From contig JAUVYH010000001.1 in the NCBI GenBank assembly GCA_030603165.1, positions 4,837 to 68,836 on the forward strand: 64,000 bases of DNA. The letters are read 5' to 3'. The stretch is from Fidelibacterota bacterium (GTDB lineage: Bacteria > Fidelibacterota > UBA2242). Numbering within the stretch: the stretch's first letter is position 1; the number at the start of each line of letters is the position of its first letter. The notes below the pieces were generated by a model, which made no database searches, was not told where the DNA came from, and saw only the letters and a list, made by a program, of their open reading frames with translations. This document shows positions 1,742 to 28,114 of the stretch, in pieces. The position numbers and the translations under genes are program-made.

Positions 1742-2080
1742 GTGATAACAATAAAAGATATTGCGAAACTCTCTGACGTTTCTATTGGAACAGTTGATCG
1801 CGTAATACACAAACGTGGTTTTGTATCTTCAGATACAAAGGAAAAAGTCGAATGGGCCATTAAAGAATTAAAATATACCCCCAATATATATGCTCGCCAA
1901 CTCAAATTATCAAAAAAGTACAAATTCGGTGTTTTAATGCCTGAGCTGCATCAGGATGCATATTATTGGCAAGAAGCTGCCGAAAGAGTTAATGTGTACG
2001 ATAACGCAATTGTTTATTTTATGCTTATTTATAATTTCTACTTTGGAAAGGAGGTAACATACGGGAATATTTTTAAGTAA
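1742..2080 (+). pseudogene. LacI-family transcriptional regulator, 3'-truncated remnant (HTH plus first ~40 aa of sugar-binding domain only)
   Basis: N-terminus 'IKDIAKLSDVSIGTVDRVIHKRGFVSSDTKEKVEWAIKELKYTPNIYARQL' is a LacI-type HTH. Only 112 aa versus ~340 aa expected. The next gene's RBS follows directly. Confidence 0.6.
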
Positions 2081-2130: not shown

Positions 2131-5100
2131 ATGGACAAAAAATTTATATTAGTTATGCTTCTTTTGCTCTGCATGGTGCAGTACGTTTTTTCCGGAATCA
2201 CCGGTAAAATTGTTGGAAAAGTTACAGATACTGAGAGTGGAGAGCCATTGGTGGGTGCTAATGTTTTTATTAAGGGCACAACCATGGGAGCAGCCACTGA
2301 CTCGAACGGAGATTACTTAATTCTTAACATTCCGCCTGGCGTCTATACATTGGCGGCATCGATGATAGGCAACACAACCGTTAATCAAACTGACGTGTCT
2401 GTGTCTGTAGACCATACTGTTACTGTCGATTTTGCCTTACCACCTACAGTTATAGAGGGTGTGGAGGTTACAGTAGTGGCTGAGAGGAAAGTCATTAAGA
2501 TGGATATGTCTGCCAGTCAAGTCAGTATTAGCGCGTCGGATGTCGTGGAACTTCCCAACGCGACCAGCATTGAAGATGTCATTAATCTTCAAGTAGGGCT
2601 GGATTTTGATCCAACTACCAGAGGATATGATGAACAGGCAGAGGTGACTATCCGAGGGGGTGGAAGAGGACAGAACTCATTTATGGTTGATGGATTAACG
2701 ATGGTGGATAACCGATCAAACAGACCGATGATGATGGTCAATCTTAGCTCTGTAAAGGAAATTAACATCATTAAGGGAGGCTTTAATGCGGAATATGGTA
2801 ATGTTCGATCTGGATTAATTAACGTTGTTACCAAAGAAGGTTCTTCGACTGCATATAATGGTTCGCTTGAACTTCGGATGACCCCTGGCCACCTAAAACA
2901 TGCGGGTGAATCAATCTTTGATCCAAACAGCTACTATTTGCGGCCATATCTTGATCCTGCTGTATGTTGGAATGGTACCGCGAGTGGAAGCTGGGATGAG
3001 GCAACCCAGGCACGATATAATTCCTTTATGGGATGGAATGAATTTGCCAACACGTTAGAAGGTGTGACTCCGCAACAAGCCAGGGATATTTTCATCTGGC
3101 AGCACCGGGCTGAAGGCTCTGATGATCTTGGTCGGGAAGCGGGAAGCTACGGCGATAAGCCGGACTGGATTGCAGAAGCAAGTTTTGGCGGTCCGGTTCC
3201 CTTTATCAGTAAAAAATTAGGCGGCTTGAATTTTTTTGCTACTCATCGGACCAATAATGAACAGTTTGCACTGCCCACTAACAGGGACTACTTTACAGAA
3301 CAGAATTCTCAGTTAAAGCTATGCACTAAAATAACTCCGTCCCTGAAAGTTACGGTCGAGGGAGTATATGGAGAGATTCATACCGTTCAATCTGCTCCGC
3401 GTGGTTCCGGAATGGATGCCTATATGACAAGTGGAATGGATATACTCTATTCCCCAATTGCTACTGGTGATGATTATGTGCTCGGTCAGAACGCTGCTTT
3501 GTATTATCCTTCTGCCCTGAATCTATTCGATATTTATAGGTCTATGGTAGGCATAGCTATTGATCATGTTTTGAGCCCACGTACATTTTATAATGTGAGA
3601 ATCTCTCGGACTCGCGTTAAAAATCTTTGCACTGGTCCGGATAGATTTCGGGACAACACGACCATTCGAACTTTTGGTGACTTTGCCGTTGATGAAACAC
3701 CATTTGGATATCAGGTTGGTATCGAAACCATGTTTGATGGTATGTCTACAACCGGAGAGGGGTCTACCCGGGATTACTCGGAAGTCAATACCGTCAATGT
3801 TAAATTTGATATCACCAGCCAGGTCAACAAATACAATCAGATTAAGTCGGGATTGGAATATAATTATGATGATCTTGATGTTCACTACGAGCACAACCAA
3901 ATAGGTGATGCAGGTAATAACTGGATAGTTAAGTGGAGGAGATATCCGTACCGTGCCAGTATGTATATACAGGACAAACTTGAATTCAAGGGCATGATTG
4001 CCAATGTAGGTTTAAGAGCAGACTTGAATAATCCAAATTCAAAGGCATTCGTAACGGATAGATATTCCATGTATTTCCGGAAAAAATTTATGGATACGTT
4101 TCAAGATTTAGCTCCTTACGAAGATGCTAAAGTGCGCCTGAAACTTAGCCCTCGTTTAGGAATTTCTCATCCAATTACCGAAGATGCCAAACTTTACTTT
4201 AATTATGGTCATTTCTATTCGGTGCCAACATCTAATGAGATGTTTCTCATTATGAAACGGGCTCAAGGGCTTAGTGATATAGGCAATCCCAATGCTGAAT
4301 TAGCAAAAACAGTAGCCTATGAGTTAGGTGTTGAGTACAGTCTCTTAGACATGTTCCTGCTTCATTTGTCCAGCTATTATAAAGACGTCAGCGAACAACT
4401 TGCCAATATCCATTATGTCGGCTATGATGGAGGTGTCAACTATTGGTCTCGTGAAAATAACAATTACGAGGATATTCGAGGATTTGAGGCTAAAATTGAA
4501 AAGCGTTTTGGGGCATGGGTTACCGGATGGGTAAATTATAACTATATGGTGACTACATCCGGATATATTGGACGGCAGACCTATTACGAGGATCAAAGAA
4601 GGCAGGCGCAAGAAGGACTAATGAATCCGGTCCAGAATCGTCCGCTCGCACGTCCTTTAGCCCGCGCTAATATCACCATCACGAGTCCCAATGATTTCGG
4701 GCCGACAGTTGCAGGATTTAATCCAGCTGCTGGTGTCCGGTTAGATTTGCTTTATATCTGGAGAGCCGGTAAGTACGAGTCAATAGGTGATTATAGAATG
4801 TGGAATAAAGTGGGTGATGTCGAATTAATTGATGATTTGCAATGGAAAGGTCGGACCACTTTTGATTTAAGATTACGAAAAAAAATATCTTATATAAAAT
4901 ATGACTTTAGCTTGTATCTGGATATCGCCAATGTGTTTAACATAAAATACCTCGAAGAATCAGGCTTTGCAGACGCTGATGATAGAACCTCTTATATGAG
5001 ATCATTGCACCTGCAGCGGTACAACGGCGACGAGTTTGCGACTAAGGCAGAATATGAGGCTATGGACTGTATTGCCGGCGACGATAAGCCGGGAGACGTA

Positions 5101-5199
5101 AAGTCCGATGATAAACCTTACATAGATATGCCAGACCGCGAATTTCTTACCTATCTGAATCCTCGAACAATTACGTTTGGATTAGGAATTAATTTTTAA
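2131..5199 (+). CDS. TonB-dependent outer-membrane receptor with N-terminal carboxypeptidase-regulatory-like domain and plug domain
   Basis: Signal peptide; 'GKIVGKVTDTESGEPLVGANVFIKGTTMGAATDSNGDYLI' (CarbopepD_reg-like); plug region '...VTIRGGG..FMVDGLTM...'; C-terminal aromatic residue (..LGINF); 1022 aa; SD gagaggag upstream. Confidence 0.85.
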   Translation: MDKKFILVMLLLLCMVQYVFSGITGKIVGKVTDTESGEPLVGANVFIKGTTMGAATDSNGDYLILNIPPGVYTLAASMIGNTTVNQTDVSVSVDHTVTVDFALPPTVIEGVEVTVVAERKVIKMDMSASQVSISASDVVELPNATSIEDVINLQVGLDFDPTTRGYDEQAEVTIRGGGRGQNSFMVDGLTMVDNRSNRPMMMVNLSSVKEINIIKGGFNAEYGNVRSGLINVVTKEGSSTAYNGSLELRMTPGHLKHAGESIFDPNSYYLRPYLDPAVCWNGTASGSWDEATQARYNSFMGWNEFANTLEGVTPQQARDIFIWQHRAEGSDDLGREAGSYGDKPDWIAEASFGGPVPFISKKLGGLNFFATHRTNNEQFALPTNRDYFTEQNSQLKLCTKITPSLKVTVEGVYGEIHTVQSAPRGSGMDAYMTSGMDILYSPIATGDDYVLGQNAALYYPSALNLFDIYRSMVGIAIDHVLSPRTFYNVRISRTRVKNLCTGPDRFRDNTTIRTFGDFAVDETPFGYQVGIETMFDGMSTTGEGSTRDYSEVNTVNVKFDITSQVNKYNQIKSGLEYNYDDLDVHYEHNQIGDAGNNWIVKWRRYPYRASMYIQDKLEFKGMIANVGLRADLNNPNSKAFVTDRYSMYFRKKFMDTFQDLAPYEDAKVRLKLSPRLGISHPITEDAKLYFNYGHFYSVPTSNEMFLIMKRAQGLSDIGNPNAELAKTVAYELGVEYSLLDMFLLHLSSYYKDVSEQLANIHYVGYDGGVNYWSRENNNYEDIRGFEAKIEKRFGAWVTGWVNYNYMVTTSGYIGRQTYYEDQRRQAQEGLMNPVQNRPLARPLARANITITSPNDFGPTVAGFNPAAGVRLDLLYIWRAGKYESIGDYRMWNKVGDVELIDDLQWKGRTTFDLRLRKKISYIKYDFSLYLDIANVFNIKYLEESGFADADDRTSYMRSLHLQRYNGDEFATKAEYEAMDCIAGDDKPGDVKSDDKPYIDMPDREFLTYLNPRTITFGLGINF

Positions 5200-5237: not shown

Positions 5238-7445
5238 ATGAAAAGAAATTATTTAATAATAGAACTTCTGCTAACATGTTTCCTATTTTCGTATAATATT
5301 GTATACGCGGGTTTCACCAAGAATATACAAGTTGGGAGTTATCAGACATTTGTCGATGACAATACCCATCAGGGTGAAACCTCAGTAGGCGATCGTGGTG
5401 CTATGTATCAGAATGCTTTTCACTGGGGTTGGCCTGCCTGTGCGGTACAGTTTTCAGGGTGGTACCTGGGCGCCAAAAACTGGACAGCAGAAGATGGAGA
5501 CGTATGGCCTGTGAAGCTCACTGGTGCGGCACCTGTCACGGTAAATGAGTTGCAAGCCCAGATGCCGGTAGCAGATGAGGACGGATATTTTATCAGAAAA
5601 TATGTGAGATATCGACCTCCCACGGTTGTCGTCGATGGCTTCGAAACAAATGAGCCGTTTCCATTGGAAGGTGATGAAGTCGCTCCCGATAAGATCCCGG
5701 GAACGGCAGATGTCATGGTAACATCAACAATTAATACCGATATGGGAGTCACGATAACTCAAAAAGTACTTGCCTGGAGCCAAAAAAATCACGATGATTA
5801 TATCATCTATGATTGGACATTCACCAACACGGGAAATATCGATCTGGATGAGGAAATTGAACTTCCAAATCAGACATTAGAAGGCGTTTACTTTCTCCGA
5901 TCAAGCAGGCTCGAACGATGGGATTCAGAATATTGGTATAGCGGTTTCGGGGAATATACAACAGATACGCTACGGATGCGCTATGCCTATCCAGCGAGGA
6001 GAAAAGGTGCGGACCATGATAATACCGGAAATGGTTTCTGGGCGCCACAACCGGGCTGGCTTTGGAATTCGCAGTCTGTCGGTCAGGCTATACTTCATGT
6101 TGATAAATCTGTGGACGATCCAACAGATGACTTTGATCAACCGGGTATGACCGGCACAGAGAATAGCGACCTTCTCTGGATTCGAAATGATCCTACCTCC
6201 ACCGGTCCCGCGGATTGGGCTCAGGTATATAAAGTAATGACAGAAGGATGGGTATGGCGAGGCAATGTACCCCGACTCACACAAGACAATGCCCCCGCCG
6301 GGATGACAGTACGCTCCGGATACCGTTCAGTGAGAATGCAGGATCTTGCCGTGCCTGGCACGAAATTTATTTTGGATCTCGACTGGGTTACCTACGGCGC
6401 CGCATATTTTTGGGATGCCGGTCCATACACGATGAAACCCGGGGATTCGTTCCGGATCGTCTGGGCGGATGGATTTGGAGTCATCAATCCGCTGAAAATC
6501 TGGGAAATTCAGGGAGCATGGGAACAGGGAACAGCCACACCACCTGAAGGGATGACATTTGACAATGCTACTGGAGTTGGTTTGCTTGATAACATGCCGC
6601 CCCCCTATAAAAATAATCCTGACCTGTATGATAATGATTATAATAACTGGTCCAGGGATTGTTGGATTTTTACAGGTATTGATTCTCTCATTCAAAATAT
6701 GAATGCCGCCCAGTGGAACGTGAGAAACAATTATAACGTGCCAATCCCGCCGCCGCCGCCATCAGTTACCGTCAGTTCAAAACCGAACCAGATCGTGATT
6801 GAGTGGGGTAATGAATCAGAAGCAGCGTCGGATTTTGCCGGTTACAGATTATATCGATCCGAAGGTTTCTGGTATGAAGGGCATATTCCATGGACTAATG
6901 AGACAAGGCATGGTAGGTGGGAACTTATTAGGGACTTTCATGGTAGCAGTACTCACAGTTATGAGGATACGGACGTGACCCGTGGTCTTGCCTATTACTA
7001 TTACGTAACCGCCTATGATGATGGTGAGAGCAATGGACCTGATGTCAATGGACAGAATCAAGTTCTTGAGAGTGGTGCTTTTCTAAATGTAACAAAACGC
7101 GCTGCATATCTAACCAGAGATGCAGGAAGCAAACTCGAAAATATTGTTGTCGTACCCAATCCATTTAATATTAGCGCTATAGATCTGCAATATCCAGGTG
7201 AGCCAAACAAAATAATGTTTTTGGAATTGCCCCCGGTTTGTACCATCAGGATTTACACCGAGAGTGGTGATTTAGTGAGAACCATTGAACATACCAACGG
7301 TTCCGGTGATGAAGCATGGGGCGTATTGGCGAATGAACACCTCGCCTCTGAAATAGGGCAGCTGGTCGTGAGTGGTATTTATATTGCCAACATTGAAACG
7401 CCGGACGGCGATAGCATCAATCGTAAAATCGTGATCGTAAGGTAA
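5238..7445 (+). CDS. T9SS-secreted surface protein: unknown ~480-aa N-terminal region, poly-Pro linker, FN3-like domain, type-A T9SS C-terminal sorting domain
   Basis: Signal peptide; 'PPPPPS' linker; FN3-like 'IVIEWGN...GYRLYRSEG...YYYYVTAYD'. C-terminus 'VVPNPFN...IRIYTESGDLV...SGIYIANIETPDG...RKIVIVR' matches the Por secretion tail pattern. Confidence 0.65.
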   Translation: MKRNYLIIELLLTCFLFSYNIVYAGFTKNIQVGSYQTFVDDNTHQGETSVGDRGAMYQNAFHWGWPACAVQFSGWYLGAKNWTAEDGDVWPVKLTGAAPVTVNELQAQMPVADEDGYFIRKYVRYRPPTVVVDGFETNEPFPLEGDEVAPDKIPGTADVMVTSTINTDMGVTITQKVLAWSQKNHDDYIIYDWTFTNTGNIDLDEEIELPNQTLEGVYFLRSSRLERWDSEYWYSGFGEYTTDTLRMRYAYPARRKGADHDNTGNGFWAPQPGWLWNSQSVGQAILHVDKSVDDPTDDFDQPGMTGTENSDLLWIRNDPTSTGPADWAQVYKVMTEGWVWRGNVPRLTQDNAPAGMTVRSGYRSVRMQDLAVPGTKFILDLDWVTYGAAYFWDAGPYTMKPGDSFRIVWADGFGVINPLKIWEIQGAWEQGTATPPEGMTFDNATGVGLLDNMPPPYKNNPDLYDNDYNNWSRDCWIFTGIDSLIQNMNAAQWNVRNNYNVPIPPPPPSVTVSSKPNQIVIEWGNESEAASDFAGYRLYRSEGFWYEGHIPWTNETRHGRWELIRDFHGSSTHSYEDTDVTRGLAYYYYVTAYDDGESNGPDVNGQNQVLESGAFLNVTKRAAYLTRDAGSKLENIVVVPNPFNISAIDLQYPGEPNKIMFLELPPVCTIRIYTESGDLVRTIEHTNGSGDEAWGVLANEHLASEIGQLVVSGIYIANIETPDGDSINRKIVIVR

Positions 7446-7523: not shown

Positions 7524-8510
7524 ATGAAGAAATTAATCATACTTTTGGTCGCTATTTTTACGGCGGCTATCATAACAATACCTGCCCATGCGGCATTAAA
7601 AAAAGTGTCCCAAACCGGGTTCCAATTTCTGAAAATTGATGTTGCGCCTCGAGCTGCCGCCATGGGTGGGGCGTATACATTGACAGGGAATGACGCCAGC
7701 GCCATGTTCTATAACCCTGCAGGCATGGCTATGATGCAGCACAACGTTGATTTTTTCTCAAGCAGAACACAATGGATAGCTGATATCAGTTACAGTGTAG
7801 CGGGAATAGCTAAAAATTTTGATAAGTGGGGCACTGTTGGCGCAAGTTTTATTTTTAGTGATTATGGCGACATCATTGGTACTCGAGTTGCTAAGAACGA
7901 ACAAGGTTACGAGAAAACCGGAAATATTGATGTTGGAGCGTATGCAATAGGTGTAAGCTACGCCAAATCTTTGACAGACAAATTTTCCGTCGGTGGTCAG
8001 ATTAAATATGCAGCTCAACATCTTGGCGACAACGTGTTTACGGAGGGTGGCAAATCTTATAAAAATGAAGTATCCGGATTTGCCTTTGACTTTGGCACTA
8101 TTTTTTATCCTGGTTTCGAAAGCTTGAGATTTGGAATGAGTGTTAATAATTTTTCAGGACAGTTTCAATATGAAGAGGATCCGTTCCAATTACCCCTCAC
8201 ATTTAAAATTGGTGTTGCTATGAACGTAATGGATTTATTAGGCGATTATGAAAATCCTTTACTCATCGCCATCGATGCTATTCATCCTCGTGATTACACA
8301 GAGAGAATACATATTGGAGGTGAATATTGGTATAAAAATATGATAGCATTCAGGACCGGTTATAAATTCAATTACGATGAAGAAGGTTTCTCTGTAGGAA
8401 TTGGTTTTAAGCGCACCATTGCTGGAACGAATATGAAGTTGGACTATGCCTATAGTGACTTAGGCAGATTTAACGCAGTATCCAGAGTTTCTCTTGGAAT
8501 TTCATTATAG
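7524..8510 (+). CDS. PorV (LptO)/FadL-like outer-membrane beta-barrel protein, probable T9SS cargo shuttle (alternatively PorP/SprF-like)
   Basis: Signal peptide; N-terminal 'FQFLKIDVAPRAAAMGGAYTLTGNDASAMFYNPAGMA' with NPAG hatch motif; 328 aa; C-terminal aromatic-rich beta-strand pattern. Located directly downstream of a T9SS-CTD cargo gene. Confidence 0.5.
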   Translation: MKKLIILLVAIFTAAIITIPAHAALKKVSQTGFQFLKIDVAPRAAAMGGAYTLTGNDASAMFYNPAGMAMMQHNVDFFSSRTQWIADISYSVAGIAKNFDKWGTVGASFIFSDYGDIIGTRVAKNEQGYEKTGNIDVGAYAIGVSYAKSLTDKFSVGGQIKYAAQHLGDNVFTEGGKSYKNEVSGFAFDFGTIFYPGFESLRFGMSVNNFSGQFQYEEDPFQLPLTFKIGVAMNVMDLLGDYENPLLIAIDAIHPRDYTERIHIGGEYWYKNMIAFRTGYKFNYDEEGFSVGIGFKRTIAGTNMKLDYAYSDLGRFNAVSRVSLGISL

Positions 8511-8780: not shown

Positions 8781-10331
8781 ATGTTACGAATTATTTATTA
8801 TTTTCTTATCGCTCTTATGATAGGAATTTCGACAACGGTTCAAGCAGCGGATTTAAATGCTCGTATTAAGATTGATACTGAACGTACGATTGGTGAAATC
8901 AACAAAAACATATATGGCAATTTTGCTGAGCACTTAGGTCGTTGTATATATGGAGGCATTTACGATCCCGGTTCGAAACTCTCTAATAAAATGGGTTTTC
9001 GAAAAGATGTACTGAAAGCAGCCAAAGGTTTGAATGTACCTCTTCTGAGATGGCCGGGAGGGAATTTTGTATCCGGCTATCACTGGGAAGATGGAATTGG
9101 GCCGAAAAAGAATCGTCCGGAAAGAACGGATCTGGCGTGGCATACTCCGGAACCAAACACGTTTGGTACCGATGAGTTCATTGATTTTTGTCGTGCAGTG
9201 GGAACAGAACCGTACTTCGCAGTGAATTTAGGTACAGGTACACTGGATGAGGCCAGAAACTGGGTTGAATACTGTAATGTAAAAGAAGGCCCTTATTATG
9301 CCGAATTGCGAAAGAAGAATGGACATACCAAACCGCATAACGTTATGTACTGGTCATTGGGCAACGAAATGGATGGCTTTTGGCAAATGGGGCACAAAAA
9401 TGCCGATGACTACGGCAAATACGCCCTGGAAGCCGCAAAGCTGATGAAGTGGACTTCCCCGGAAATTAAGCTCATCGCGGCTGGCTCTTCAAATTTTTAT
9501 GGTGGAGCAGATCCGCACGGATGGAATAGAGTTGTGTTGGATTATTTGAAAGATTATGTCGACTACATTGCGCTGCACAAATATGTCGGGAACCGCGATA
9601 ACGACTATTATTCTTTCATGGCATCGACGATGGATATCGATGAACGGACGAGTATTGTTGAAGGTCAAATTAAGGAAGCATTATCCAAATCACGTCGAAA
9701 GACGCCGATCTATGTAGCCTGGGATGAGTATAATGTATGGTATCGGGCTCGTGGTGGAGCAGCGGCGAGAGGGAGAAATGCTCTGGAAGAAAAATACAAT
9801 CTGGAAGATGCGTTGGTTGTCGCGGGTTTCTTAAATGCATTTATCAGAAATGCTCACATTGTTAAAATGGCGAATATGGCTCAGTTGGTGAATGTAATTG
9901 CTCCTATCTTTACCAGTGAAACTGATATGTTCAGACAAACAATCTATTATCCACTCGCTCTTTATGCGAATAATTCGCACGGAACCGCCCTGGACGCTTT
10001 TGTGGATTCGCCAACCTATGATACAGAACAATGGAAACAGGTTCCGTATCTGGATGTATCTGTGGCGTATAACAATGATGAGGTCATTATAAATGTTGTA
10101 AACAGACATCTAGAAGAAAGTATTAATACGGAAATTATTAGCCAAACAGGCGAATTCAGTGGTACATTTTCGGTCTATGAAGTTAATGGCCCCGATGTTA
10201 AGACAGAAAACACATTTGGCAGTGAACCTGTAAAATCTGTTAAAAAACCCGGTATTAAAGTCAAAGGGAATAGTTTCTCTTATGAATTTCCTCCTCATTC
10301 ATATGTGATGATTAAAGGAAAGTTGAAATAA
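8781..10331 (+). CDS. abfA: GH51 alpha-L-arabinofuranosidase (secreted)
   Basis: 'NIYGNFAEHLGRCIYGGIYDPGS', 'LRWPGGNFVSGYHWEDGIGP', acid/base 'WSLGNEMDG', nucleophile region 'AWDEYNVWY'; signal peptide; 516 aa. Confidence 0.88.
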   Translation: MLRIIYYFLIALMIGISTTVQAADLNARIKIDTERTIGEINKNIYGNFAEHLGRCIYGGIYDPGSKLSNKMGFRKDVLKAAKGLNVPLLRWPGGNFVSGYHWEDGIGPKKNRPERTDLAWHTPEPNTFGTDEFIDFCRAVGTEPYFAVNLGTGTLDEARNWVEYCNVKEGPYYAELRKKNGHTKPHNVMYWSLGNEMDGFWQMGHKNADDYGKYALEAAKLMKWTSPEIKLIAAGSSNFYGGADPHGWNRVVLDYLKDYVDYIALHKYVGNRDNDYYSFMASTMDIDERTSIVEGQIKEALSKSRRKTPIYVAWDEYNVWYRARGGAAARGRNALEEKYNLEDALVVAGFLNAFIRNAHIVKMANMAQLVNVIAPIFTSETDMFRQTIYYPLALYANNSHGTALDAFVDSPTYDTEQWKQVPYLDVSVAYNNDEVIINVVNRHLEESINTEIISQTGEFSGTFSVYEVNGPDVKTENTFGSEPVKSVKKPGIKVKGNSFSYEFPPHSYVMIKGKLK

Positions 10332-10514
10332 CTAGATCGGAATAATTAATTTTGCATGAATTCCTGAATCATAAATGAGTGTGACGGGAACTGTATAATT
10401 TAAAAAAGGTGGTTTGCATAAAGCGAAATTCGTTATCTCTACAAAGATGGATTAGTTCTGTGTCAAATTACTTTTAAATTTGTATCAATAGTAGATCAAA
10501 TAAAAAGGAAAAAA

Positions 10515-12104
10515 ATGTATTACAACAAAATTTGGAGAAGGGTATCACTTGTAATGATGTCTAAATGTATGGTTGCTGTTTTATCGATCGTATTGTTTGT
10601 TGGCGTTGTTTCATTGACTGCCGCGGAAAATGTTAACAAATTAATCGTCAATACTGACCAGGGTAAGGAAACGATAAACCGTCACATTTATGGGCATTTT
10701 TCCGAACACCTGGGCCATTGTATTTATGGCGGGTATTGGGTTGGTGAGGATTCAGATATTCCGAATACCAGGGGGATCAGAAATGATGTGGTTGAAGCAT
10801 TGAGAAAAATTAATATTCCTAACCTTCGCTGGCCCGGCGGCTGCTTTGCTGATGAGTACCATTGGATGGATGGTATTGGACCGCGTAACAAACGTCCAAA
10901 AATGATAAATACGCATTGGGGCGGAGTCACTGAAGATAACAGCTTCGGAACCCATGAGTTTTTAGATTTATGCGAACAGTTAGGCACCGAACCTTACATA
11001 TGTGGAAATGTCGGCAGCGGTACTGTCGAAGAAATGTCGAAATGGGTTGAATATCTAAATTCTGATGGCATAAGCCCAATGTCTGATGAGCGAAGGAAAA
11101 ACGGACGGGATAAAGCCTGGGGTGTTAAATATTGGGGTGTTGGAAACGAAAACTGGGGATGTGGCGGAAATATGACCCCTGAGTTTTATGCCGATCAATA
11201 CAAACGGTTTGCCACATATTGCAGAAATTATGGCGACAACCGTTTACTAAAAATTGCCGGTGGGGCAAATACAGATGATTATAACTGGACAGAAGTTTTA
11301 ATGAAGAAAATTACTCCTCGGGGAATGTGGGGACTTTCATTGCATTATTATACAACAAATTGGTGGAATAAGGGATCAGCCACTGAATATGATAAAAAAG
11401 GATACTTTGAGGTGATGGATCGGTGTTTAAATATTTCCAAAGTGATTGACAGGCATATGACAATCATGGATAAATACGATCCTGAAAAAAGAGTAGCCCT
11501 GGTGGTTGATGAATGGGGCACCTGGTTTGATGTTGAACCTGGAACCAATCCGGGATTTTTATTCCAGCAAAACACGATTCGTGATGCGATTGTGGCGGGC
11601 ATTCATTTAAATGAATTCAATAAAAGGTGCGACCGTATTAAAATGGCCAATATTGCCCAAACTATCAATGTGCTTCAGGCATTGATTTTTACAAAAGATG
11701 AAAAAATGTTATTAACACCGACTTACCATGTTTTTGAAATGTACAAGGTTCATCAGGACGCCACTTTACTACCCACTGAGCTGCAGTGCACGGACTATAA
11801 GTTTGGGGATGAAAAACTCCCGGCATTGAATGCCTCGGCATCGAGAGACAAATCAGGGAAGATTCACATATCAATTTGTAATTTGGATCCAAATAAGTCT
11901 GCCAAACTTGATTGCGAATTGCGGGGTATCAAGGCGAAGAAGGTTTCCGGTCGTGTGTTAACCACAGCGGCTATCAATTCACACAATACTTTTGATAACC
12001 CGGATGTAGTTCATCCAACTATTTTTAAGGATGTCAAATTAAAAAGAGGTAAGTTAACCGCAACGCTCCCGGCAAAGTCAGTGGTGGTTTTTGAAATTGA
12101 GTAG
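10515..12104 (+). CDS. abfA: GH51 alpha-L-arabinofuranosidase, second paralog (secreted)
   Basis: '[24 protein letters not shown]', '[20 protein letters not shown]', 'WGVGNENWG', 'VVDEWGTW'; 529 aa. The start may be a downstream Met (MMSK..., 10551). Confidence 0.85.
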
Positions 12105-12232
12105 CATTTTGAGTTAATATTAAATTATGGGACAATTTAGTGAATGCACTCTTATGCAAACCCATACAGTAATTAAACAGTAATTTTAATGGTCATTCAT
12201 GTGAATAGTCCATCAACTGTGAAAAGGGAAAA

Positions 12233-13699
12233 ATGATGTGTAATGAGTTTAGGACAAGGTCGTCCCAGATGAAGGCTTATATAAAATTAAGCATTGTTGC
12301 ATATCTGTTATTGTTGATACTGGGTTTAAATTCGTGCGGAAAAGAAGATCCCATTCAAACGAATACAGATCTATATGATCCTGAAATAAATGACGATTAT
12401 AGCAGCATTGCGGAGATTGGCTATTCGAGCTTATGGGGCACCTATAATTTACACGATCCTTCAATTATCAAATTCGATAATATCTATTATATCTTTTCTA
12501 CCGATGTAGCCTATGGACCTAATGGTCGATGCGGTGTGATGTGGCGACAGTCGAATGATCTTGTTCACTGGAGTTTCAATGGCTGGGTATTCAACGGTGT
12601 TCCCAATAATCCTCTTGAATTTATGGAGGCTAATCAACCTGGCTATCGACAACTATCCATTTGGGCGCCTTATATCATAAAATCCGGTGAACAGTTCAGG
12701 CTTTATTATTCAGTACCAGGAAACGATTGGTTTAAGCTGGCATGTATTGGCTTAGCCACGAGTACTTCTTCTCTTGGCCCATGGAATGATGAAGGCATCG
12801 TGATCTCTTGTCTTCCCTCAGATCATTATAATGCCATTGATCCGGCCGTAATAGTTGATCAAGATAATGGCAAACACTGGTTTATATATGGTTCTTACTC
12901 ATCTGGCATATACATAGTTGAATTGGATCCTGCCACAGGCAAAATACTCAAAGCGGGCGATAAGGGGAAACGGATTGCCTACCGGGGAAAAGACCACGAT
13001 GCTATCGAGGGCGGAGAGATCATCTATAACCCGGAGTTTGATGCCTATTACCTTTTTGTTTCGTACGACTGGCTAGAAGACAATTATAATGTGCGTGTAG
13101 GTCGTTCCGACAAGCCTGAAGGTCCGTACCTTGATATCCATGGCAATAATATGGCTGACGTAGGAGATAACTATCCGATGATAACTGCCAAATACCGGTT
13201 TAAGGGACATGCCGGATGGCAGGGAGTCGGGCATTGTGGTCTCCTGAAAGATGGTGACGATTACTTTTTTGTGAGCCAAGGGCGGTTAAGCTCCAATATC
13301 TATCTGATGGTTTTACATGTTCGGCGAATGGTATGGACTCCTGACGGCTGGCCGGTTGTTTCACCAAACAGATATGCAGGAGTGCCGCAAACAGAGATCA
13401 CTACAGATGATATCGTCGGCAAATGGGAACATATCGATCTTGATGAAATTACAACAGTAAATCAGTCAATAGAAATTGAATTACTCAGTGATGGATCTGT
13501 TTCCGGAATCGAAAACTCAAGCTGGGATTATGAAGGCGAGTTGTTAACCCTTTCGTTAAATAACAGAGGAACAATTTATCAAGCCAGGGTTTTTAATGAA
13601 TGGGACTGGGTAAATAAATACCGCACGTTAGTATATACGGGATTAACATCTAATGGACAAGCCGGCTGGGGTAAAAAAATGAGTGAATTTACTCCTTAA
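12233..13699 (+). CDS. GH43 family glycoside hydrolase (arabinanase/arabinofuranosidase-type) lipoprotein
   Basis: 'YNLHDPSIIKFDNIYYIFSTD', 'WAPYIIKSGEQFRLYYS', 'DPAVIVDQDNGKHWFIYGSY' five-bladed propeller motifs; lipobox 'LNSCG'. The likely true start is Met at 12269. Confidence 0.8.
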   Translation: MMCNEFRTRSSQMKAYIKLSIVAYLLLLILGLNSCGKEDPIQTNTDLYDPEINDDYSSIAEIGYSSLWGTYNLHDPSIIKFDNIYYIFSTDVAYGPNGRCGVMWRQSNDLVHWSFNGWVFNGVPNNPLEFMEANQPGYRQLSIWAPYIIKSGEQFRLYYSVPGNDWFKLACIGLATSTSSLGPWNDEGIVISCLPSDHYNAIDPAVIVDQDNGKHWFIYGSYSSGIYIVELDPATGKILKAGDKGKRIAYRGKDHDAIEGGEIIYNPEFDAYYLFVSYDWLEDNYNVRVGRSDKPEGPYLDIHGNNMADVGDNYPMITAKYRFKGHAGWQGVGHCGLLKDGDDYFFVSQGRLSSNIYLMVLHVRRMVWTPDGWPVVSPNRYAGVPQTEITTDDIVGKWEHIDLDEITTVNQSIEIELLSDGSVSGIENSSWDYEGELLTLSLNNRGTIYQARVFNEWDWVNKYRTLVYTGLTSNGQAGWGKKMSEFTP

Positions 13700-13710
13700 A
13701 AAAGCGAAAA

Positions 13711-16317
13711 GTGAAATTGAAAAAATCAGAAAGAGATACTCGGACGAAAAGGGAAGATACCCTATCCGAATCTAAGAAACTTACCGGATGCCGCAAATGG
13801 TTTTTCTTTTTTGTGCTAACAGTGATTATACCCGCATTATTATTTTTACTTCTTGAGATCAGTCTAAGAATTATCGGGTATGGATACCCTACAGATTTTT
13901 TCATACCAAGACAGGTTGAAGGCAATCAAGTTTTCACTGACAATATGAAATTTACCTGGCGATTCTTCCGCCCGGAGCTGGCTCGTCCCTCCTGTCGTTT
14001 AGTCATACCTGCCGAGAAATCGTCCGATACTTTTCGAATATTTGTGCTTGGCGGGTCTGCTGCTATGGGAGATCCGGACTTTTCGTTTGGCTTTAGCCGG
14101 ATACTTGAGACTATGCTGCAGCATCAGTATCCCGACGTGCGATTTGAAGTAATCAATGCAGCTGTAACAGCCATTAATAGCAACGTTGTCTTGCCTATCT
14201 CCCGGGATTGCGCAAAGCTCCAACCTGATTTGTTTATCATTTACCTCGGAAATAACGAGGTGATTGGACCTTATGGACCAGGAACTGTATTTGCGCCATT
14301 TTCGTCAAATCTGGGTTTAATTCGGGCTAATATTTTTTTGAAGTCTACGAAGATTGGGCAATTACTGAATAGCTTAAGGCAGCAATTGGACACGGATGAA
14401 GATAACATGCAGACATGGGGTGGGGTGGACATGTTTGTCAAAAACCGATTGCGTTTCAATGATACGCGCATGGCGGCGGTGTATGAGCATTTTCGTGGCA
14501 ACCTTATAGATATATGCAAGACTGGACAGCGAGCCGGCGCTAAGGTCGTTGTCTGTACTGTGCCCACTAATTTAAAAAATTGCGCCCCTTTTGGTTCACT
14601 GCATCGTCGGGATTTGATTTATGCTTCAATAAGCGAGTGGAATGCGATTTACGACACCGGTATTGCTTTAGAGTCATCTGGCAAATATGAAGAGGCTATA
14701 GAGTATTATTTGAGGGCCGCCGGTATTGATGATGAATTTGCTGATTTACAGTTTCGTTTAGCCAGGTGTTACTGGAAATTAGGACAATATGGTGAAGCCC
14801 ACAAGCATTTCATTATAGCACGGGATCTGGACGCATTGAGATTTCGTGCTGATACTCAAATCAATGAAATAATCAGAAATGTTGCTGCTGACTGTAGCAG
14901 TGAAGGCGTGTCTCTTGTAGACGCGGAAAAAGTTTTTCAAGCGGACAACTCTCATGGGAGCCCGGTCGATGATCTCTTTTATGATCATGTACACATGAAT
15001 TTTAGCGGCAACTTTCTTCTTGCCCGGCTTGTTAAGGAACAGGTTGAAAATGTCTTTGGGATGGAAAGCCGGGGCAATACTCTTTCCCAGGTAGAATGTG
15101 CCGGACGTCTGGCGTTTACGCCCCGGGATAGTTACCGTATTCAAAAGGAGATCCTTGGAAGAATGAAGTCCCCGGCGTTCGCAAATCAGATTGACAATGC
15201 CGAATCAGTACGACATTTAGAAGCGAAACTGGACAGCATGAGAACATACTTAAAACAGGATGCGTTGACCCAAGCGGTTGAAAACTACCGCCGGGCTATA
15301 GAGATAAACGAGCAGGATTGGGTAGTGCGGAATAACTTTGGGTTGCTGCTTTTGGAAGCCGGCGGCGATCCTATTGGTGCGGCTGAACAGTTCCGTTCTG
15401 TCCTGCGTGTTTTCCCTGATGACTATTTGTCCCATAACAATCTGGGACTGGCATTCGAACAGCAGGGTAAAATAGATGAGGCAGTTGCCTGCTACGAGGA
15501 GGCATTACTAATCAAACCCAACTTTCCGAAAGCCAACTTTAATCTGGGAAAAGTTCTGGAACGTCAGGGTAAATATAAAGAGGCTATCAGGCATTACTAT
15601 CTGGCACATCTGCCGACACAAGGCTTGGCGGATGCGCACAATAGGTATGGCAAAAAGCTTGCGAACGATGGTAAGATGGATCAGGCCGTCAGCCAGTTTG
15701 AAGAGGCCATCAGACTTTGGCCCGACTCACCGAATGTACATCGTAATCTGGGGAATGTATTTGCACAGACGGGGAAAACAGATTTAGCGATTCAGCACTT
15801 TTCAGAAGCGGTGAGAATCATGCCTGAATTGGCAGCGGCGCATATAGACTTTGCGTCACTGCTCTTCATGCAGGGAGATTATGGAAATGCTATCGAGCAT
15901 TACAATAAAGTACTTCAGCTTAGACCTGACCTTCCTGAGGTACACAATAATCTGGGATTGGCTCTTTGCAAACAGGGAGAATTCGAGAAGGCAATTAAGC
16001 ATTTTCAAAAAGCGCTATTAGTCAGGAAGGATTTTCTCGCTGCCCGCAACAACATGGCCGGGGCGCTAAGCCAATTAGGGAGGAGTGAAGAAGCAATCAC
16101 TCAACTGAAAGAGGCACTGCGGATAAACTCAGACAATCCAGATTTCCATAACAATATTGGGGTTGAGTTGTTGAAACTTGGCAAGATCGAACAGTCCATT
16201 ACTCATTTTGAAAAGGCGTTACAGTTAAATCCCAAATTAAAAAGTGCACAGAATAACTTGGAATATGCTTTATCTCAGCTAAAAGATAGCGACAATGAGA
16301 AGCTATCTAAAGAATAG
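13711..16317 (+). CDS. Membrane-anchored SGNH/GDSL-hydrolase-like domain fused to a long TPR-repeat array (868 aa)
   Basis: GTG start; one TM helix; putative SGNH blocks 'FVLGGSAAMG', 'IIYLGNNEV', 'YDHVHMN' (DxxH); >=10 TPR units in the C-terminal half (e.g. 'AIEHYNKVLQLRPDLPEVHNNLGLAL'). Confidence 0.6.
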   Translation: MKLKKSERDTRTKREDTLSESKKLTGCRKWFFFFVLTVIIPALLFLLLEISLRIIGYGYPTDFFIPRQVEGNQVFTDNMKFTWRFFRPELARPSCRLVIPAEKSSDTFRIFVLGGSAAMGDPDFSFGFSRILETMLQHQYPDVRFEVINAAVTAINSNVVLPISRDCAKLQPDLFIIYLGNNEVIGPYGPGTVFAPFSSNLGLIRANIFLKSTKIGQLLNSLRQQLDTDEDNMQTWGGVDMFVKNRLRFNDTRMAAVYEHFRGNLIDICKTGQRAGAKVVVCTVPTNLKNCAPFGSLHRRDLIYASISEWNAIYDTGIALESSGKYEEAIEYYLRAAGIDDEFADLQFRLARCYWKLGQYGEAHKHFIIARDLDALRFRADTQINEIIRNVAADCSSEGVSLVDAEKVFQADNSHGSPVDDLFYDHVHMNFSGNFLLARLVKEQVENVFGMESRGNTLSQVECAGRLAFTPRDSYRIQKEILGRMKSPAFANQIDNAESVRHLEAKLDSMRTYLKQDALTQAVENYRRAIEINEQDWVVRNNFGLLLLEAGGDPIGAAEQFRSVLRVFPDDYLSHNNLGLAFEQQGKIDEAVACYEEALLIKPNFPKANFNLGKVLERQGKYKEAIRHYYLAHLPTQGLADAHNRYGKKLANDGKMDQAVSQFEEAIRLWPDSPNVHRNLGNVFAQTGKTDLAIQHFSEAVRIMPELAAAHIDFASLLFMQGDYGNAIEHYNKVLQLRPDLPEVHNNLGLALCKQGEFEKAIKHFQKALLVRKDFLAARNNMAGALSQLGRSEEAITQLKEALRINSDNPDFHNNIGVELLKLGKIEQSITHFEKALQLNPKLKSAQNNLEYALSQLKDSDNEKLSKE

Positions 16318-16379
16318 TATTAGACGAGAGGATTCGTGCAAATAACATTAACCTTTGGTGACCTAAATAGAATATTAAG

Positions 16380-18392
16380 GTGGATAAAATGAATCGTCAA
16401 CTTTTTAATCACATCTCGAGATTATTGTGTATATTTTTAGCGATAGTCACGATGTCTTGTAAACCAGCAGAAAATGCTAAGTTAAGAACAGGCTATCCCA
16501 TCACTCCCGTCTCATTTACCGACGTTGAATTATCAGATAATTTCTGGTCCGAGCGCATTAAAACCAACCGGGATGTCACGATTCCCTTTGGTTTTAAAAA
16601 ATGCGAAGAAGAAGGACGGATTCGAAATTTTGCCAGAGCCGGCGGATTACTCGAAGGCGAATATGAAGGGAAAATGCCATTCGATGATACAGATGTTTAT
16701 AAAATCATAGAAGGTGCTTCATATTCTTTGACGACAAATCCGGATAAAGAATTAGAAAAATATATCGATGATATTATCGAAAAAATTGCTGCAGCTCAGG
16801 AACACGACGGTTACCTGTGTACCTGGAAAACTTTAGCTCCCGATACAACTCCCGCACCTTGGGTTAAACCAGGACCACGCTGGCATCATTTGGGAGCCAG
16901 TCATGAATTATACAATGCGGGTCATATGTATGAGTCTGCTTTTGCTCATTATCGGGCAATGGGCAAGAGAAATTTTTTAAACATTGCTTTGAAGAACGCC
17001 GATTTAATTGCAGAAGTATTCGGTCCCGGGAAAAAGCTCGATCCGCCGGGGCATCAGATCATTGAAACGGGACTCGTTAAATTATACAGGATAACCCAGG
17101 ATAAAAAGTATCTCGATTTAGCGAAGTTCTTTTTGGACCAACGCGGCAATGCAGAAGGTCATAAGCTTCATGGACCTTATAGTCAGGATCATCAGCCGGT
17201 CATTGAACAGAAAGAGGCTGTTGGACACGCTGTACGTGCAGCTTATATGTATGCCGGAATGACCGATATCGCTGCTATGATGCAAGATTTATCCTATCTG
17301 AAAGCTGTTGACAACATTTGGGAAAATGTAGTATCGAAAAAAATATATATTACCGGAGGAATTGGTGCACGTCATGGTGGCGAGTCATTTGGTGATAATT
17401 ATGAGTTACCTAATCTAACTGCCTATAATGAAACCTGTGCAGCCATTGGAAATATTTATTGGAATCATCGGATGTTTTTGTTGCATGGAGATGCCAAATA
17501 TATTGACATTTTGGAACGTACGCTCTACAATGGCGTGATTTCGGGGGTGTCTCTGGAAGGGAATTCATTTTTTTATCCCAATTGTCTGGAATCTGACGGA
17601 AAATACGCATTCAATATGGGTGCCTTAACCCGTCAACCCTGGTTTGATTGTTCTTGCTGCCCTTCAAACATTATTCGTTTTATGCCGTCCGTACCGAATT
17701 ATATATATGCGCACCGAGATGATTCGATTTTTGTTAATCTTTTTATTTCCGGAAAAACCAGAATTGATATAGATAAATCAACTGTTGAAATCTGTCAAAA
17801 AACTGACTATCCTTGGGATGGAAAAGTTATTTTAAAAATTAATCCTAAGGAGGATAAGAAATTTGCAATAAATATCCGCATCCCCGGATGGGCACGGAAT
17901 CAACCGGTGCCAAGCGATCTATATAGATATCTGGTTACAAACAAGGAGAAGGTTACACTTAAAGTCAATGGTAATTACATTGATTTAAATATGGAGAAGG
18001 GTTATGCTCGCATTTGTAGAAAATGGCAAAAGGAAGATATAATTGAGCTAAATTTACCTATGCCGGTTAGACGTGTATTGGCTTGTGAGAGAGTAAAGAA
18101 TGATCTGGGAAGGGTGGCACTTGAGCGCGGTCCAATTGTTTATTGTGCTGAATGGCCTGACAACGGGGGCAAAGTTTTAGATATTCTATTGAGGGATTAT
18201 ATGCCTCTTAAGGTCGAATACCGGGGTGACATGTTGGGAGGAATTGCTGTAATTACAGGCGAGGTCATCCATTTGGATTCTACAAGAAGTGTCAGGAAGG
18301 GCACGACTAAAAGTTTTATGGCAATACCATACTATTCCTGGGCCCACCGCGGGGTGGGTGAAATGTCTGTTTGGCTAAAACATGATCAATAA
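16380..18392 (+). CDS. GH127 beta-L-arabinofuranosidase (HypBA1/DUF1680 family) lipoprotein
   Basis: 'NETCAAIGNIYWNHRMF' (E-x-C) and 'CSCCPSN' give the Cys3-Glu zinc/catalytic-Cys pattern of GH127; lipobox 'TMSC'; 670 aa. Confidence 0.8.
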   Translation: MDKMNRQLFNHISRLLCIFLAIVTMSCKPAENAKLRTGYPITPVSFTDVELSDNFWSERIKTNRDVTIPFGFKKCEEEGRIRNFARAGGLLEGEYEGKMPFDDTDVYKIIEGASYSLTTNPDKELEKYIDDIIEKIAAAQEHDGYLCTWKTLAPDTTPAPWVKPGPRWHHLGASHELYNAGHMYESAFAHYRAMGKRNFLNIALKNADLIAEVFGPGKKLDPPGHQIIETGLVKLYRITQDKKYLDLAKFFLDQRGNAEGHKLHGPYSQDHQPVIEQKEAVGHAVRAAYMYAGMTDIAAMMQDLSYLKAVDNIWENVVSKKIYITGGIGARHGGESFGDNYELPNLTAYNETCAAIGNIYWNHRMFLLHGDAKYIDILERTLYNGVISGVSLEGNSFFYPNCLESDGKYAFNMGALTRQPWFDCSCCPSNIIRFMPSVPNYIYAHRDDSIFVNLFISGKTRIDIDKSTVEICQKTDYPWDGKVILKINPKEDKKFAINIRIPGWARNQPVPSDLYRYLVTNKEKVTLKVNGNYIDLNMEKGYARICRKWQKEDIIELNLPMPVRRVLACERVKNDLGRVALERGPIVYCAEWPDNGGKVLDILLRDYMPLKVEYRGDMLGGIAVITGEVIHLDSTRSVRKGTTKSFMAIPYYSWAHRGVGEMSVWLKHDQ

Positions 18393-24139: not shown

Positions 24140-25645
24140 CTAAGAATAGCTGACAGTATTCCAGCGGATTTCTTTCTTGAATTCGGACATTTTGGTTGAA
24201 TCGTCAATTTGAAGCAATTCAATGCCTGCGATTTCAGCGAAGTCCTCAATATATTCGGCAGTTAACGCCTGACTAAATCCGGAATGATGCGCTCCGCCTG
24301 CCAATATCCAGCTTTCTGCGGCGATTTCAAGATCGGGTTTAGGAATCCAGACTGCCCGTGCTACCGGTAATTTCGGTAACTCTTCATCCGGTAAAACGAC
24401 GTCAACTTCATTGAGGATCATTCTGAAGCGATTTCCCAGATCGATCAGCGATACGTTCAAAGCCGGTCCGGCAGGAACATTAAATACCAGGCGCGGCGGG
24501 TCGTCTTTTCCGCCGATTGATAACGGATGGACTTCTAATCCGGGTTTGCCGGCTGTGATGGATTCGCATACTTCAAGCATGTGTGCGCCGAGCACTTTCA
24601 TACCTGACGGATCCAGATGATATGTATAATCTTCCATAAAAGAAGCGCCGCCATTTAAGCCAACCGACATTATTTTCATTGCTCGCACCAAAGCCGCTGT
24701 TTTCCAGTCGCCTTCAGCTCCAAATCCGTAACCGTCCGCCATCAATCGCTGGACGGCTAATCCGGGCAGCTGTTTTAATCCATGCAAGTCCTCGAATGTC
24801 GTCGTGAATCCGGTAAAGTTTCCATCCTCAAGAAATTGCCTTATCCCGAGTTCAATCCGTGCCGCTTCACGCAAATCGGAATGTTTACTGCCGCCGATGG
24901 CAGCCTCAGCCGCAATAATATATCTATCTTGATATTCACTAATCAGAGTATCTATTTCTTTGTCGGTTATGGTGGTTACATATTTTACCAAATCACCGAC
25001 ACCGAACCCGTTTACCGAATAACCCAATCGTAGTTGCGCTTCGACTTTGTCGCCTTCGGTAACGGCTACTTCGCGCATGTTATCGCCAAATCGTGCAATT
25101 TTGCCGCCTTGGGCGTCCTGCCAGGCAAAGGCGGCTCGCATCCAAATCGCCAATTTATTTTGAACTTTCTCATCTTTCCAATATCCGACGATGACTTTCC
25201 GGGATTTTTTCATTCTGGTACAAATGAATCCGAACTCCCGTCCGCCGTGGGCTGACTGATTCAGGTTCATAAAATCCATATCGATCTTCGACCAGGGTAT
25301 ATCCCGGTTATATTGGGTGTGCAGATGAACAAAGGGTTTTTGAAGCACCTTTAATCCGGCAATCCACATTTTAGCCGGCGAGAAAGTATGCATCCAGGTG
25401 ATAAGACCAATGCATGTTTTCGAATTGTTTGCCTCAAGCATCAAATCATAGATGGAATCGGGTGTCGTGAGTACCGGTTTAAACACAACCTTTATTGGAA
25501 TATTCGGAGATTTGGATAGACCTTTGGCAATTTCTTTGGAATGTTCTGCTACCTCTAATAAAGTCTTTTCACCGTATAAATGCTGACTGCCGGTAATGAA
25601 CCATACTTCATAATTTTTTAATTTTTTCAATTTTTTATTCCTCAT
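24140..25645 (-). CDS. araA: L-arabinose isomerase
   Basis: '[15 protein letters not shown]...' N-terminus and 501-aa length match AraA (E. coli 'NYEVWFVIGSQHLYG'). Confidence 0.9.
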
Positions 25646-25690
25646 ATTAAAAAGATTTTTATTTTACAAATGGAACAAAAGTTTAAAAGA

Positions 25691-26380
25691 TTACTTTTGA
25701 CCGTAATAGGCATCGGGTCCGTGTTTCCTTGAGTAGTGCTTTTTCAGAATGTATTTTGGTATTTCCTCAATATCTTTATTTAGCAACAGACTGTTTAGCG
25801 CCATTTTAGCAACCCGTTCAAGGACAAGACTGTTTTTTACCGAATCCCGGGGATCTTTGCCCCAGGTAAAAGGAGCATGTCCGGCAACAAGCACTCCGGG
25901 CATGTCGTTGGGAATTAAATTGGCGAATCGTTCAATAATAACCTGACCCGTATAGTGCTCGTAATTTTTGATTGTTTCTTCTTCAGTCAAAAATCGTGTT
26001 ACCGGAATGCGACCATCAAAATGGTCTGCGTGGGTTGTACCATAACAGGGAATTTCCCTGCACGCCTGTGCAAAGGCAGTTGCATATTCGCTATGACTAT
26101 GCGCTATACCGCCGATTTTTGTAAATTTTTCATATAAAGTTAAATGAGTAGGAGTATCTGACGATGGACGCCATTTACCCTCCACCAGTTTACCATCAAT
26201 ATCGACTGTAACCATATCATTGACTGTCATTTTCTCGTAATCGATACCGCTGGGCTTAATGACGATCAGACCTTCGGCGCGGTTAATTCCACTGACATTA
26301 CCCCAGGTTAATGTAACCAGTCCGTATTTGACCAGTTCAAGATTGGCTTTAAATACTTCGGTTTTCAGAGCTTCTAACAT
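25691..26380 (-). CDS. araD: L-ribulose-5-phosphate 4-epimerase (class II aldolase fold)
   Basis: 229 aa; 'GLVTLTWGNVSGI', 'IAHSHSEYATAF', 'HADHFDGRIPV' metal-binding His pattern of AraD. Confidence 0.85.
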   Translation of the reverse strand: MLEALKTEVFKANLELVKYGLVTLTWGNVSGINRAEGLIVIKPSGIDYEKMTVNDMVTVDIDGKLVEGKWRPSSDTPTHLTLYEKFTKIGGIAHSHSEYATAFAQACREIPCYGTTHADHFDGRIPVTRFLTEEETIKNYEHYTGQVIIERFANLIPNDMPGVLVAGHAPFTWGKDPRDSVKNSLVLERVAKMALNSLLLNKDIEEIPKYILKKHYSRKHGPDAYYGQK

Positions 26381-28080: not shown

Positions 28081-28114
28081 CTTTATCCTTTCGCTGGTTT
28101 ATTATTAAAATTCA

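Follow-up and report, generated by a model that had tools for sequence, protein, structure and literature searches.

Polysaccharide utilization loci (PULs) are now recognized by their SusC/SusD pairs, which limits their prediction to the Bacteroidota. Ortholog groups of SusC/SusD pairs track the substrate class of the locus. In BtuB-BtuG and TbpA-TbpB, a TonB-dependent transporter works with a dedicated, β-rich surface protein that is not a SusD and that captures the ligand; partners of this type are lipoproteins of other folds, and neither the system for type IX secretion (T9SS) nor a PorV-like barrel is involved. Among T9SS cargos, PorZ and PorU have C-terminal domains (CTDs) that are not removed and that stay bound to the barrels PorQ and PorV, cognate PorV-like barrels have been proposed to shield CTDs from cleavage and to anchor the cargo, and the genes of type B cargos are clustered with those of their PorP/SprF barrels (PMC10202324). 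FadL/PorV-like barrels also hold surface partners in large outer-membrane complexes of Bacteroidota, as in BamG-BamH (PMC12578637). Here we describe a three-gene cassette in a 64,000-nucleotide stretch of DNA from a Fidelibacterota bacterium (assembly GCA_030603165.1, contig JAUVYH010000001.1), referred to below as the window. Its middle gene encodes a 735-residue protein, here called X, whose N-terminal region is the subject of this analysis.

The cassette comprises a TonB-dependent receptor, X and an outer-membrane barrel of the PorV/PorQ family. We tentatively read X as a T9SS-exported, barrel-anchored surface protein that captures substrate for the adjacent transporter, and we give this chain as a whole slightly less than an even chance. 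X would be exported by Sec and then by the T9SS. Its PorZ/PorU-like CTD would be kept and bound to the PorV/Q-like barrel of the cassette, so that X is tethered on the surface beside the transporter, with its FN3 domain and linkers serving as a stalk. The N-terminal region, a supersandwich with variable Trp/Tyr-rich surfaces, would capture the substrate, here arabinan or arabino-oligosaccharides, and pass it to the transporter. The role of X would be that of SusD or of the surface glycan-binding lipoproteins for SusC in Bacteroidota, and the cassette would be what members of the Fibrobacterota-Chlorobiota-Bacteroidota (FCB) group other than Bacteroidota place at the head of substrate-utilization loci. 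The features concerned, in window coordinates, are as follows.

2131..5199, plus strand: TonB-dependent receptor, 1022 residues, first gene of the cassette, with a CarboxypepD_reg N-terminal domain, a Plug domain and a 22-strand-type barrel (Pfam PF13715, PF07715, PF00593).
5238..7445, plus strand: protein X, 735 residues, an open reading frame (ORF) and middle gene of the cassette, containing the N-terminal region studied.
5238..5309, plus strand: type I-like signal peptide of X, residues 1-24, from sequence, with a predicted helix at residues 2-22 and probable cleavage between NIVYA and the following G.
5310..6746, plus strand: N-terminal region of X (N-region), residues 25-503, a compact unit with a galactose-mutarotase-like β-supersandwich core and helical elements; conserved core at residues 119-310, variable parts at residues 25-118 and 311-503.
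6747..7037, plus strand: PPPPPS linker (residues 504-509) and FN3 domain (residues ~504-600, linker included).
7038..7145, plus strand: linker, residues 601-636, with the conserved motif LESG...N.T...A.LTR.
7146..7442, plus strand: CTD, residues 637-735, divergent T9SS type-A-like and PorZ/PorU-CTD-like, the most conserved domain of the family.
7524..8510, plus strand: PorV/PorQ-family outer-membrane β-barrel, 328 residues, third gene of the cassette (NF033709 PorV_fam, 216 bits, cutoff 90).

The pairing of X with its transporter is strict, and adjacency of the two genes is near-universal in what is a large family of unnamed proteins. In the window, 38 nucleotides separate the receptor stop codon from the start of X, and 78 nucleotides separate X from the barrel gene. 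Conservation and synteny were assessed with 92 non-redundant X homologs from fetched loci, identity being measured to the X of the window. Of the 62 loci with room for it, 60 have the gene of a homologous receptor directly upstream of the X homolog; the two exceptions are a tandem X-X duplication and an atypical longer ORF. In 54 of 76 loci the next gene downstream encodes the PorV/Q-like barrel; within a more distant subfamily that gene is sometimes upstream of the receptor and sometimes not adjacent. Tandem cassettes are common, and single genomes can hold several copies. By score the receptor is not a SusC/RagA member (TIGR04056, 59 bits, cutoff 368). The barrel exceeds the cutoff of the broad PorV family model and reaches about 91 bits with the PorQ and PorV equivalog models, under their cutoffs of 220 and 250; with the PorP/SprF model it reaches 22 bits (cutoff 90.55).

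Both exceptions to receptor adjacency can be described from their loci. In L046 (5451-9914) the order is receptor, X, X, PorV/Q-like barrel, a tandem duplication of X. In L033 (6942-10106) the X homolog is part of a longer ORF (about 1055 codons between stops), and neither a receptor nor a PorV/Q-like gene is found nearby; no other locus departs clearly from the cassette rule.

An earlier note, made from the window sequence without database searches, had described the N-terminal part of X as lacking a recognizable family and any glycoside hydrolase (GH), polysaccharide lyase (PL) or carbohydrate-binding module (CBM) motif. Searches agree on both points. No Pfam family matches the N-region at E≤0.01, and even at E≤10 a 14-bit DUF7507 fragment (residues 173-205) is the sole match, which was set aside as a short NTGN-type strand motif. 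NCBIfam has nothing for the N-region, its only match to X being a sub-threshold T9SS tail at residues 659-733. Single-sequence and profile searches of the PDB gave nothing for the N-region, only faint similarity to the FN3 domain. No GH, PL or carbohydrate esterase (CE) family matched in sequence, nor did any of the CAZy CBM families represented in Pfam, even at E≤10, and remote-homology profile searches, which the note had suggested, recovered no known family. The reported richness in Trp, Tyr, Asp and Gly was borne out (4.8% W, 5.2% Y, 8.7% D and 8.5% G over residues 1-503), as was the order of N-region, linker, FN3 domain and T9SS-type CTD, which follows a signal peptide. Its boundary was misplaced: nucleotide 6700 falls inside the last helix of the N-region. 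The PPPPPS motif starts at residue 504 (nucleotide 6747), so the N-region consists of residues 25-503 and ends at nucleotide 6746.

Structure prediction places this region without a sequence family in a recognizable fold. AlphaFold2 returned a confident model of full-length X, with a mean predicted local distance difference test score (pLDDT) of 91.9 and a predicted template modeling score (pTM) of 0.89; it shows a signal helix, a large N-region with helices near 313-336 and 418-496 and otherwise mostly β, as the note had sensed, an FN3 domain at about 510-594 and a C-terminal β-sandwich at about 637-733, with pLDDT falling to 60-70 near residues 641-660, at the start of the CTD. Modeled alone, from an alignment of full-length database homologs, the N-region is a single compact unit (pLDDT 95.2, pTM 0.94). 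Structural matches to the N-region include dextran dextrinase, bacterial glucoamylase (218 residues at 2.6 Å), glucodextranase, GH65 phosphorylases, GH116, and the GH94 cellobiose, chitobiose and cellodextrin phosphorylases, with 200-265 of 479 residues aligned. These proteins share a galactose-mutarotase-like β-supersandwich as their non-catalytic N-terminal domain. Foldseek agreement is at the domain level only (E about 1e-4, TMq 0.26-0.36). The modeled topology can be superimposed on that of known members, and the N-region thus joins the galactose-mutarotase-like superfamily at the level of fold. The structure prediction and structural search that the note had proposed therefore led to no GH or CBM family, yet they did return a carbohydrate-associated fold, at 5-12% identity. 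Neither the full-length model nor that of the N-region contains an (α/α)6 catalytic barrel or another catalytic module. The fold, the obligatory pairing with a transporter and a PorV/Q-like barrel, and the PorZ-like CTD are features that the note had overlooked.

Homologs of X are numerous and widely spread. A database search with X gave 368 homologs, and the best 120 of the 368 are full length and 42-81% identical. The best homologs are named "hypothetical", "FN3 domain-containing" or "T9SS type A sorting domain-containing" and come from metagenome-assembled genomes of KSB1, Calditrichota and Marinimicrobia. Scanning a single genome for each species, we confirmed at least 539 X loci, in KSB1, Calditrichota, Neomarinimicrobiota, Latescibacterota, WOR-3, Ignavibacteriales/Melioribacteraceae, Kryptoniota and Fidelibacterota, and found two or more loci in several single genomes. 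A profile of the N-region only detects at least 500 representatives of 50%-identity clusters at E≤1e-3, 172 of them at E≤1e-30; the N-region is an unmodeled domain family that would merit a Pfam or NCBIfam entry. No published description of X or of the cassette came up in full-text literature searches or in the Caldithrix abyssi genome paper; subscription-only papers were outside this search.

Conservation is uneven along X. Mean identity over the 92 homologs is 56% in the CTD (residues 637-735), 42% at residues 119-310, 40% in the FN3 domain, 26% at residues 311-503 and 24% at residues 25-118. Near-invariant residues are D133, D146, D158, N197, R246, D261, Q301, Y331 and D482, joined in the closer set by H185/D186. 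In the ortholog group of arabinan loci, 71 positions are kept that are rare elsewhere, and all of them fall in the N-region or the FN3 domain, none in the linker or CTD. Twelve of the group-specific positions in the N-region are aromatic (W65, Y76, W228, Y234, W276, F299, W327, W338, W340, Y386, Y390 and W392). Because the CTD is the most conserved part and the group-specific positions are confined to the N-region and FN3 domain, X could consist of a head that varies and bears specificity, set on an attachment module that stays constant. The N-domain also has distant relatives, in proteins of 1000-1600 residues (P0211, P0228, P0194, P0202, P0148, P0204, P0213 and P0260), where it is fused to right-handed β-helix/pectin-lyase-like, BNR propeller, LRR or CHB_HEX_C modules. 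All eight match Por_Secre_tail at the C-terminus, five of them above Pfam's cutoff.

Several features of X and its surroundings suggest secretion by the T9SS. The CTDs of the X family match the PorZ and PorU models at the CTD positions of those models. Matches to PorZ (NF052228) score 12-28 bits (cutoff 260) and are limited to profile positions ~663-757 of 757, where the CTD lies; a full-length PorZ match, which would include the two β-propeller domains, is not seen in the family. The PorV/PorQ-family barrel of the cassette is the obvious candidate partner for the CTD of X. The stretch 21326-21977 (plus strand) holds an ORF of 142 residues that matches part of GH43 (Pfam, positions 185-244 of the 288-position profile, 26.6 bits) and, immediately after it, a 73-residue ORF with a canonical Por_Secre_tail (21756-21977, 27.6 bits, cutoff 27). 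Together they have the look of a decayed GH43 arabinanase of the same locus that the T9SS secreted. With this tail, ordinary T9SS signals are shown to occur in the genome. The cassette barrel, this remnant, the lack of T9SS CTDs in the other enzymes of the locus, and the Por_Secre_tail of the distant N-domain relatives all fit T9SS secretion of X. The signal peptide of X has no conserved lipobox cysteine; Cys14 sits in the hydrophobic core and is not kept in the family consensus, and X was accordingly rejected as a lipoprotein.

The cassette of the window is followed by genes for arabinan use, in the order receptor, X, barrel, GH51, GH51, GH43, TPR/GDSL protein, GH127 and, farther on, an aldose epimerase; the arabinose genes are on the opposite strand.

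8781..18392, plus strand: arabinan-degrading enzymes of the locus, namely GH51 (8781-10331), GH51 (10515-12104), GH43 endo-arabinanase (12233-13699), TPR/GDSL protein (13711-16317) and GH127 (16380-18392).
24140..29869, minus strand: L-arabinose catabolism and uptake, namely araA, an araD-like aldolase, an FGGY kinase and an SSF symporter.

None of the enzymes carries a T9SS CTD, their signals being of type I or of the lipoprotein type, and X is the sole protein of the locus with a T9SS-type CTD. Both GH51 signals are of type I; those of GH43 (12233, ...LNSC), GH127 (16380, ...TMSC) and the aldose 1-epimerase (22014, ...INSC) are of the lipoprotein type, and a lipid-anchored aldose epimerase is unusual.

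The earlier note had seen X behind a receptor in an arabinan setting, which the two GH51 genes, GH43, GH127 and araABD uphold, and had proposed a novel arabinan-binding or arabinan-processing surface domain. A carbohydrate-related surface domain in such a locus is plausible, and arabinan binding suits the ortholog group to which X belongs, but as a description of the family the proposal is too narrow. Arabinan enzymes (GH51, GH43) adjoin the cassette in the window and in locus L001, four sulfatases do so in L003, GH109 and tagatose-pathway genes in the GH109/N-acetylgalactosamine (GalNAc) loci L083 and L085, and a reprolysin-type protease carrying Por_Secre_tail in L084. Orthologs with at least 58% identity to X (L001, L004, L005 and L006, annotated as Marinimicrobia, KSB1, "uncultured bacterium" and Calditrichaeota) all adjoin GH51 genes, and no homolog below 50% identity does. 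Since the same trio recurs in arabinan, sulfatase, GH109 and protease loci and orthologs track the neighboring genes, the family is a general module whose ortholog groups follow substrate class.

Some of the results weigh against substrate capture by an exported X. Its putative contact with the transporter or the barrel is deduced from gene order only, and the tracking of substrate by orthologs could also stem from inheritance of the whole locus. The CTD scores 18.5 bits with the T9SS tail model TIGR04183 (residues 659-733), below the threshold of 23, and the PorZ and PorU matches of the family are weak (E 5e-7 to 0.03). No T9SS core gene lies within the 64-kb window, and the only signs of the system there are indirect, namely the Por_Secre_tail remnant and the PorV/PorQ-family gene. 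In the more distant subfamily a PorV/Q-like neighbor is sometimes missing: of 43 loci with room on both sides of the receptor-X pair, 10 have none beside it. Identity between the N-region and every one of its structural matches is no higher than 5-12%.

Three other explanations were weighed. X could be a surface enzyme whose N-region, as a novel catalytic domain, would cleave or alter the polymer extracellularly ahead of its uptake. This would account for the near-invariant acidic and polar residues, including H185/D186 of the closer set, and for the prediction that X alone, among the proteins of the locus, gets to the surface through the T9SS; the degraded GH43 with its CTD at 21326-21977 also suggests that a surface enzyme was lost here. 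The same residues, however, are conserved in loci for chemically unrelated substrates, the protease locus among them, no (α/α)6 barrel, other catalytic module or GH, PL or CE sequence match was found, and the strict partner of X is a transporter rather than an enzyme class. We consider an enzymatic role improbable. Unlikely, too, is an accessory role for X, structural or in biogenesis, in which it serves the transporter without a substrate specificity of its own, for example as a lid or stabilizer of the barrel or as a cassette-specific attachment element of T9SS type. Variability at residues 25-118 and 311-503, with conserved Trp and Tyr specific to ortholog groups, and the tracking of locus substrate class by those groups are what a specificity-bearing component would be expected to show. 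An accessory would nonetheless be in keeping with the near-universal gene adjacency, with the conservation of residues 119-310, the FN3 domain and especially the CTD across loci of different substrates, and with the precedent of BamG-BamH (PMC12578637).

We find it very hard to credit the third alternative, in which X serves as an adhesin or surface-layer-type cargo of the T9SS, has nothing to do with transport and neighbors the receptor by location only. The architecture of β-sandwich, FN3 domain and CTD is common among T9SS adhesins, and the distant relatives are fused to LRR and β-helix modules, but a receptor adjoins X in 60 of 62 loci from many phyla, and the gaps in the window are short (38 and 78 nucleotides), which far exceeds chance co-location. 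Capture of substrate by a barrel-anchored X is the reading that we carry forward. A broader proposal can be attached to it, which we consider possible though with somewhat less than an even chance. The transporter-X-barrel cassette may be a second, SusD-independent design for nutrient capture at the outer membrane, in which the T9SS and a dedicated PorV/Q-type barrel replace lipoprotein export as the means of placing the substrate-binding partner on the transporter. For KSB1, Calditrichota, Marinimicrobia, Latescibacterota, Ignavibacteria and related phyla it may be the standard PUL tandem, and it might mark their utilization loci as SusC/SusD does in Bacteroidota.

If these proposals are true, the cassette would be a simple genomic marker for utilization loci in FCB phyla other than Bacteroidota, mostly uncultured groups that abound in sediments and in the ocean interior. 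At least 500 clusters of "hypothetical proteins" (50% identity) would gain a role. The known uses of the T9SS and of PorV/PorQ-type barrels would extend from the attachment of proteases and adhesins to the assembly of transport complexes.

Other features of the window concern the locus more than the cassette. The TPR/GDSL protein (13711-16317, plus strand), with counterparts in L001 (17305-19860) and L006, has about 850-870 residues, a hydrophobic N-terminal segment, a match to GDSL-like lipase/acylhydrolase and many TPR repeats. It is conserved at 54-55% identity across arabinan loci of different phyla, and a TPR protein also follows the cassette in L083. Just 5' of the receptor, a 112-residue ORF (1742-2080, plus strand) matches only the LacI-family helix-turn-helix (Pfam, 60.7 bits). 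The LacI regulators of L001 and L003 are full-length, at 346 and 362 residues, and a gene for an IS4-like transposase (242-1555, plus strand) adjoins the short ORF; the regulator of the locus may therefore be truncated in the window. Between the arabinan enzymes and the epimerase, 18519-20758 (plus strand) encodes a carbamoyltransferase (PF02543/PF16861) and an overlapping SxtJ-like small membrane protein; this stretch is AT-rich (GC 0.32-0.36), and its genes have no obvious tie to arabinan use. A second transposase remnant at 30389-31701 (minus strand), made up of a 152-residue ORF with a C-terminal fragment of DDE_Tnp_1 and a 290-residue ORF without a Pfam match, marks the border between the arabinose genes and a cluster at 32-62 kb that encodes a molybdopterin dehydrogenase, an amidohydrolase, a carbamoyltransferase and an amino-acid (carbamate-type) kinase. 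An Rfam scan of the window found nothing.

Compared with described systems, the cassette would be a variant of two known kinds, the TonB-dependent transporter with a dedicated surface partner and the T9SS cargo with a cognate barrel. At the level of the domain, the supersandwich of the N-region is like the N-terminal domains of GH15, GH65, GH94 and GH116 and like the aldose 1-epimerases. X differs from these in having no (α/α)6 catalytic barrel after it, for which reason it was rejected as a GH15/GH94-like enzyme; about 210 residues of the N-region, including the helices at 418-496, have no counterpart in them, and no sequence family is shared. As in PorZ-PorQ and PorU-PorV, a putative cargo with a PorZ/PorU-like CTD is paired with a barrel of the PorV/PorQ family. 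X has neither the β-propellers of PorZ nor the peptidase of PorU, the CTD alone being alike, and retention of the CTD in X is inferred; the cassette barrel, unlike PorQ and PorV, passes the broad family model only, and the X-barrel pair is genetically linked to a transporter and present in many copies. Clustering of a cargo gene with its own PorV-like barrel, the proposed anchor of uncleaved cargo, recalls type B cargos with PorP/SprF barrels, as in SprB-SprF (PMC10202324). The CTD of X, however, is type-A-like rather than type B, and the barrel belongs to the PorV/PorQ family, scoring 22 bits with the PorP/SprF model.

SusC/SusD (RagA/RagB) is the closest functional analog. In both, a transporter with a CarboxypepD_reg-type N-terminal domain is followed at once by the gene for a known or predicted surface partner, and the pair heads loci for many substrates, occurs in multiple copies per genome and has orthologs that track substrate. 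X is thus encoded directly downstream of its TonB-dependent transporter in substrate-utilization loci (38-nucleotide gap; 60 of 62 loci), as SusD is, yet every intrinsic feature of SusD fails: X has no SusD match in Pfam (E≤0.01), is β-rich rather than TPR-like helical, and has no lipobox. Neither sequence nor fold matches SusD or SusE/F, and homology to them was rejected. The receptor fails the SusC/RagA model by 59 to 368 bits. The unit also has a third member, the gene of the PorV/Q-like barrel, and X would be delivered to the surface by the T9SS instead of lipoprotein export. With these differences, X may play the role of SusD in the SusD-less relatives of the Bacteroidota.

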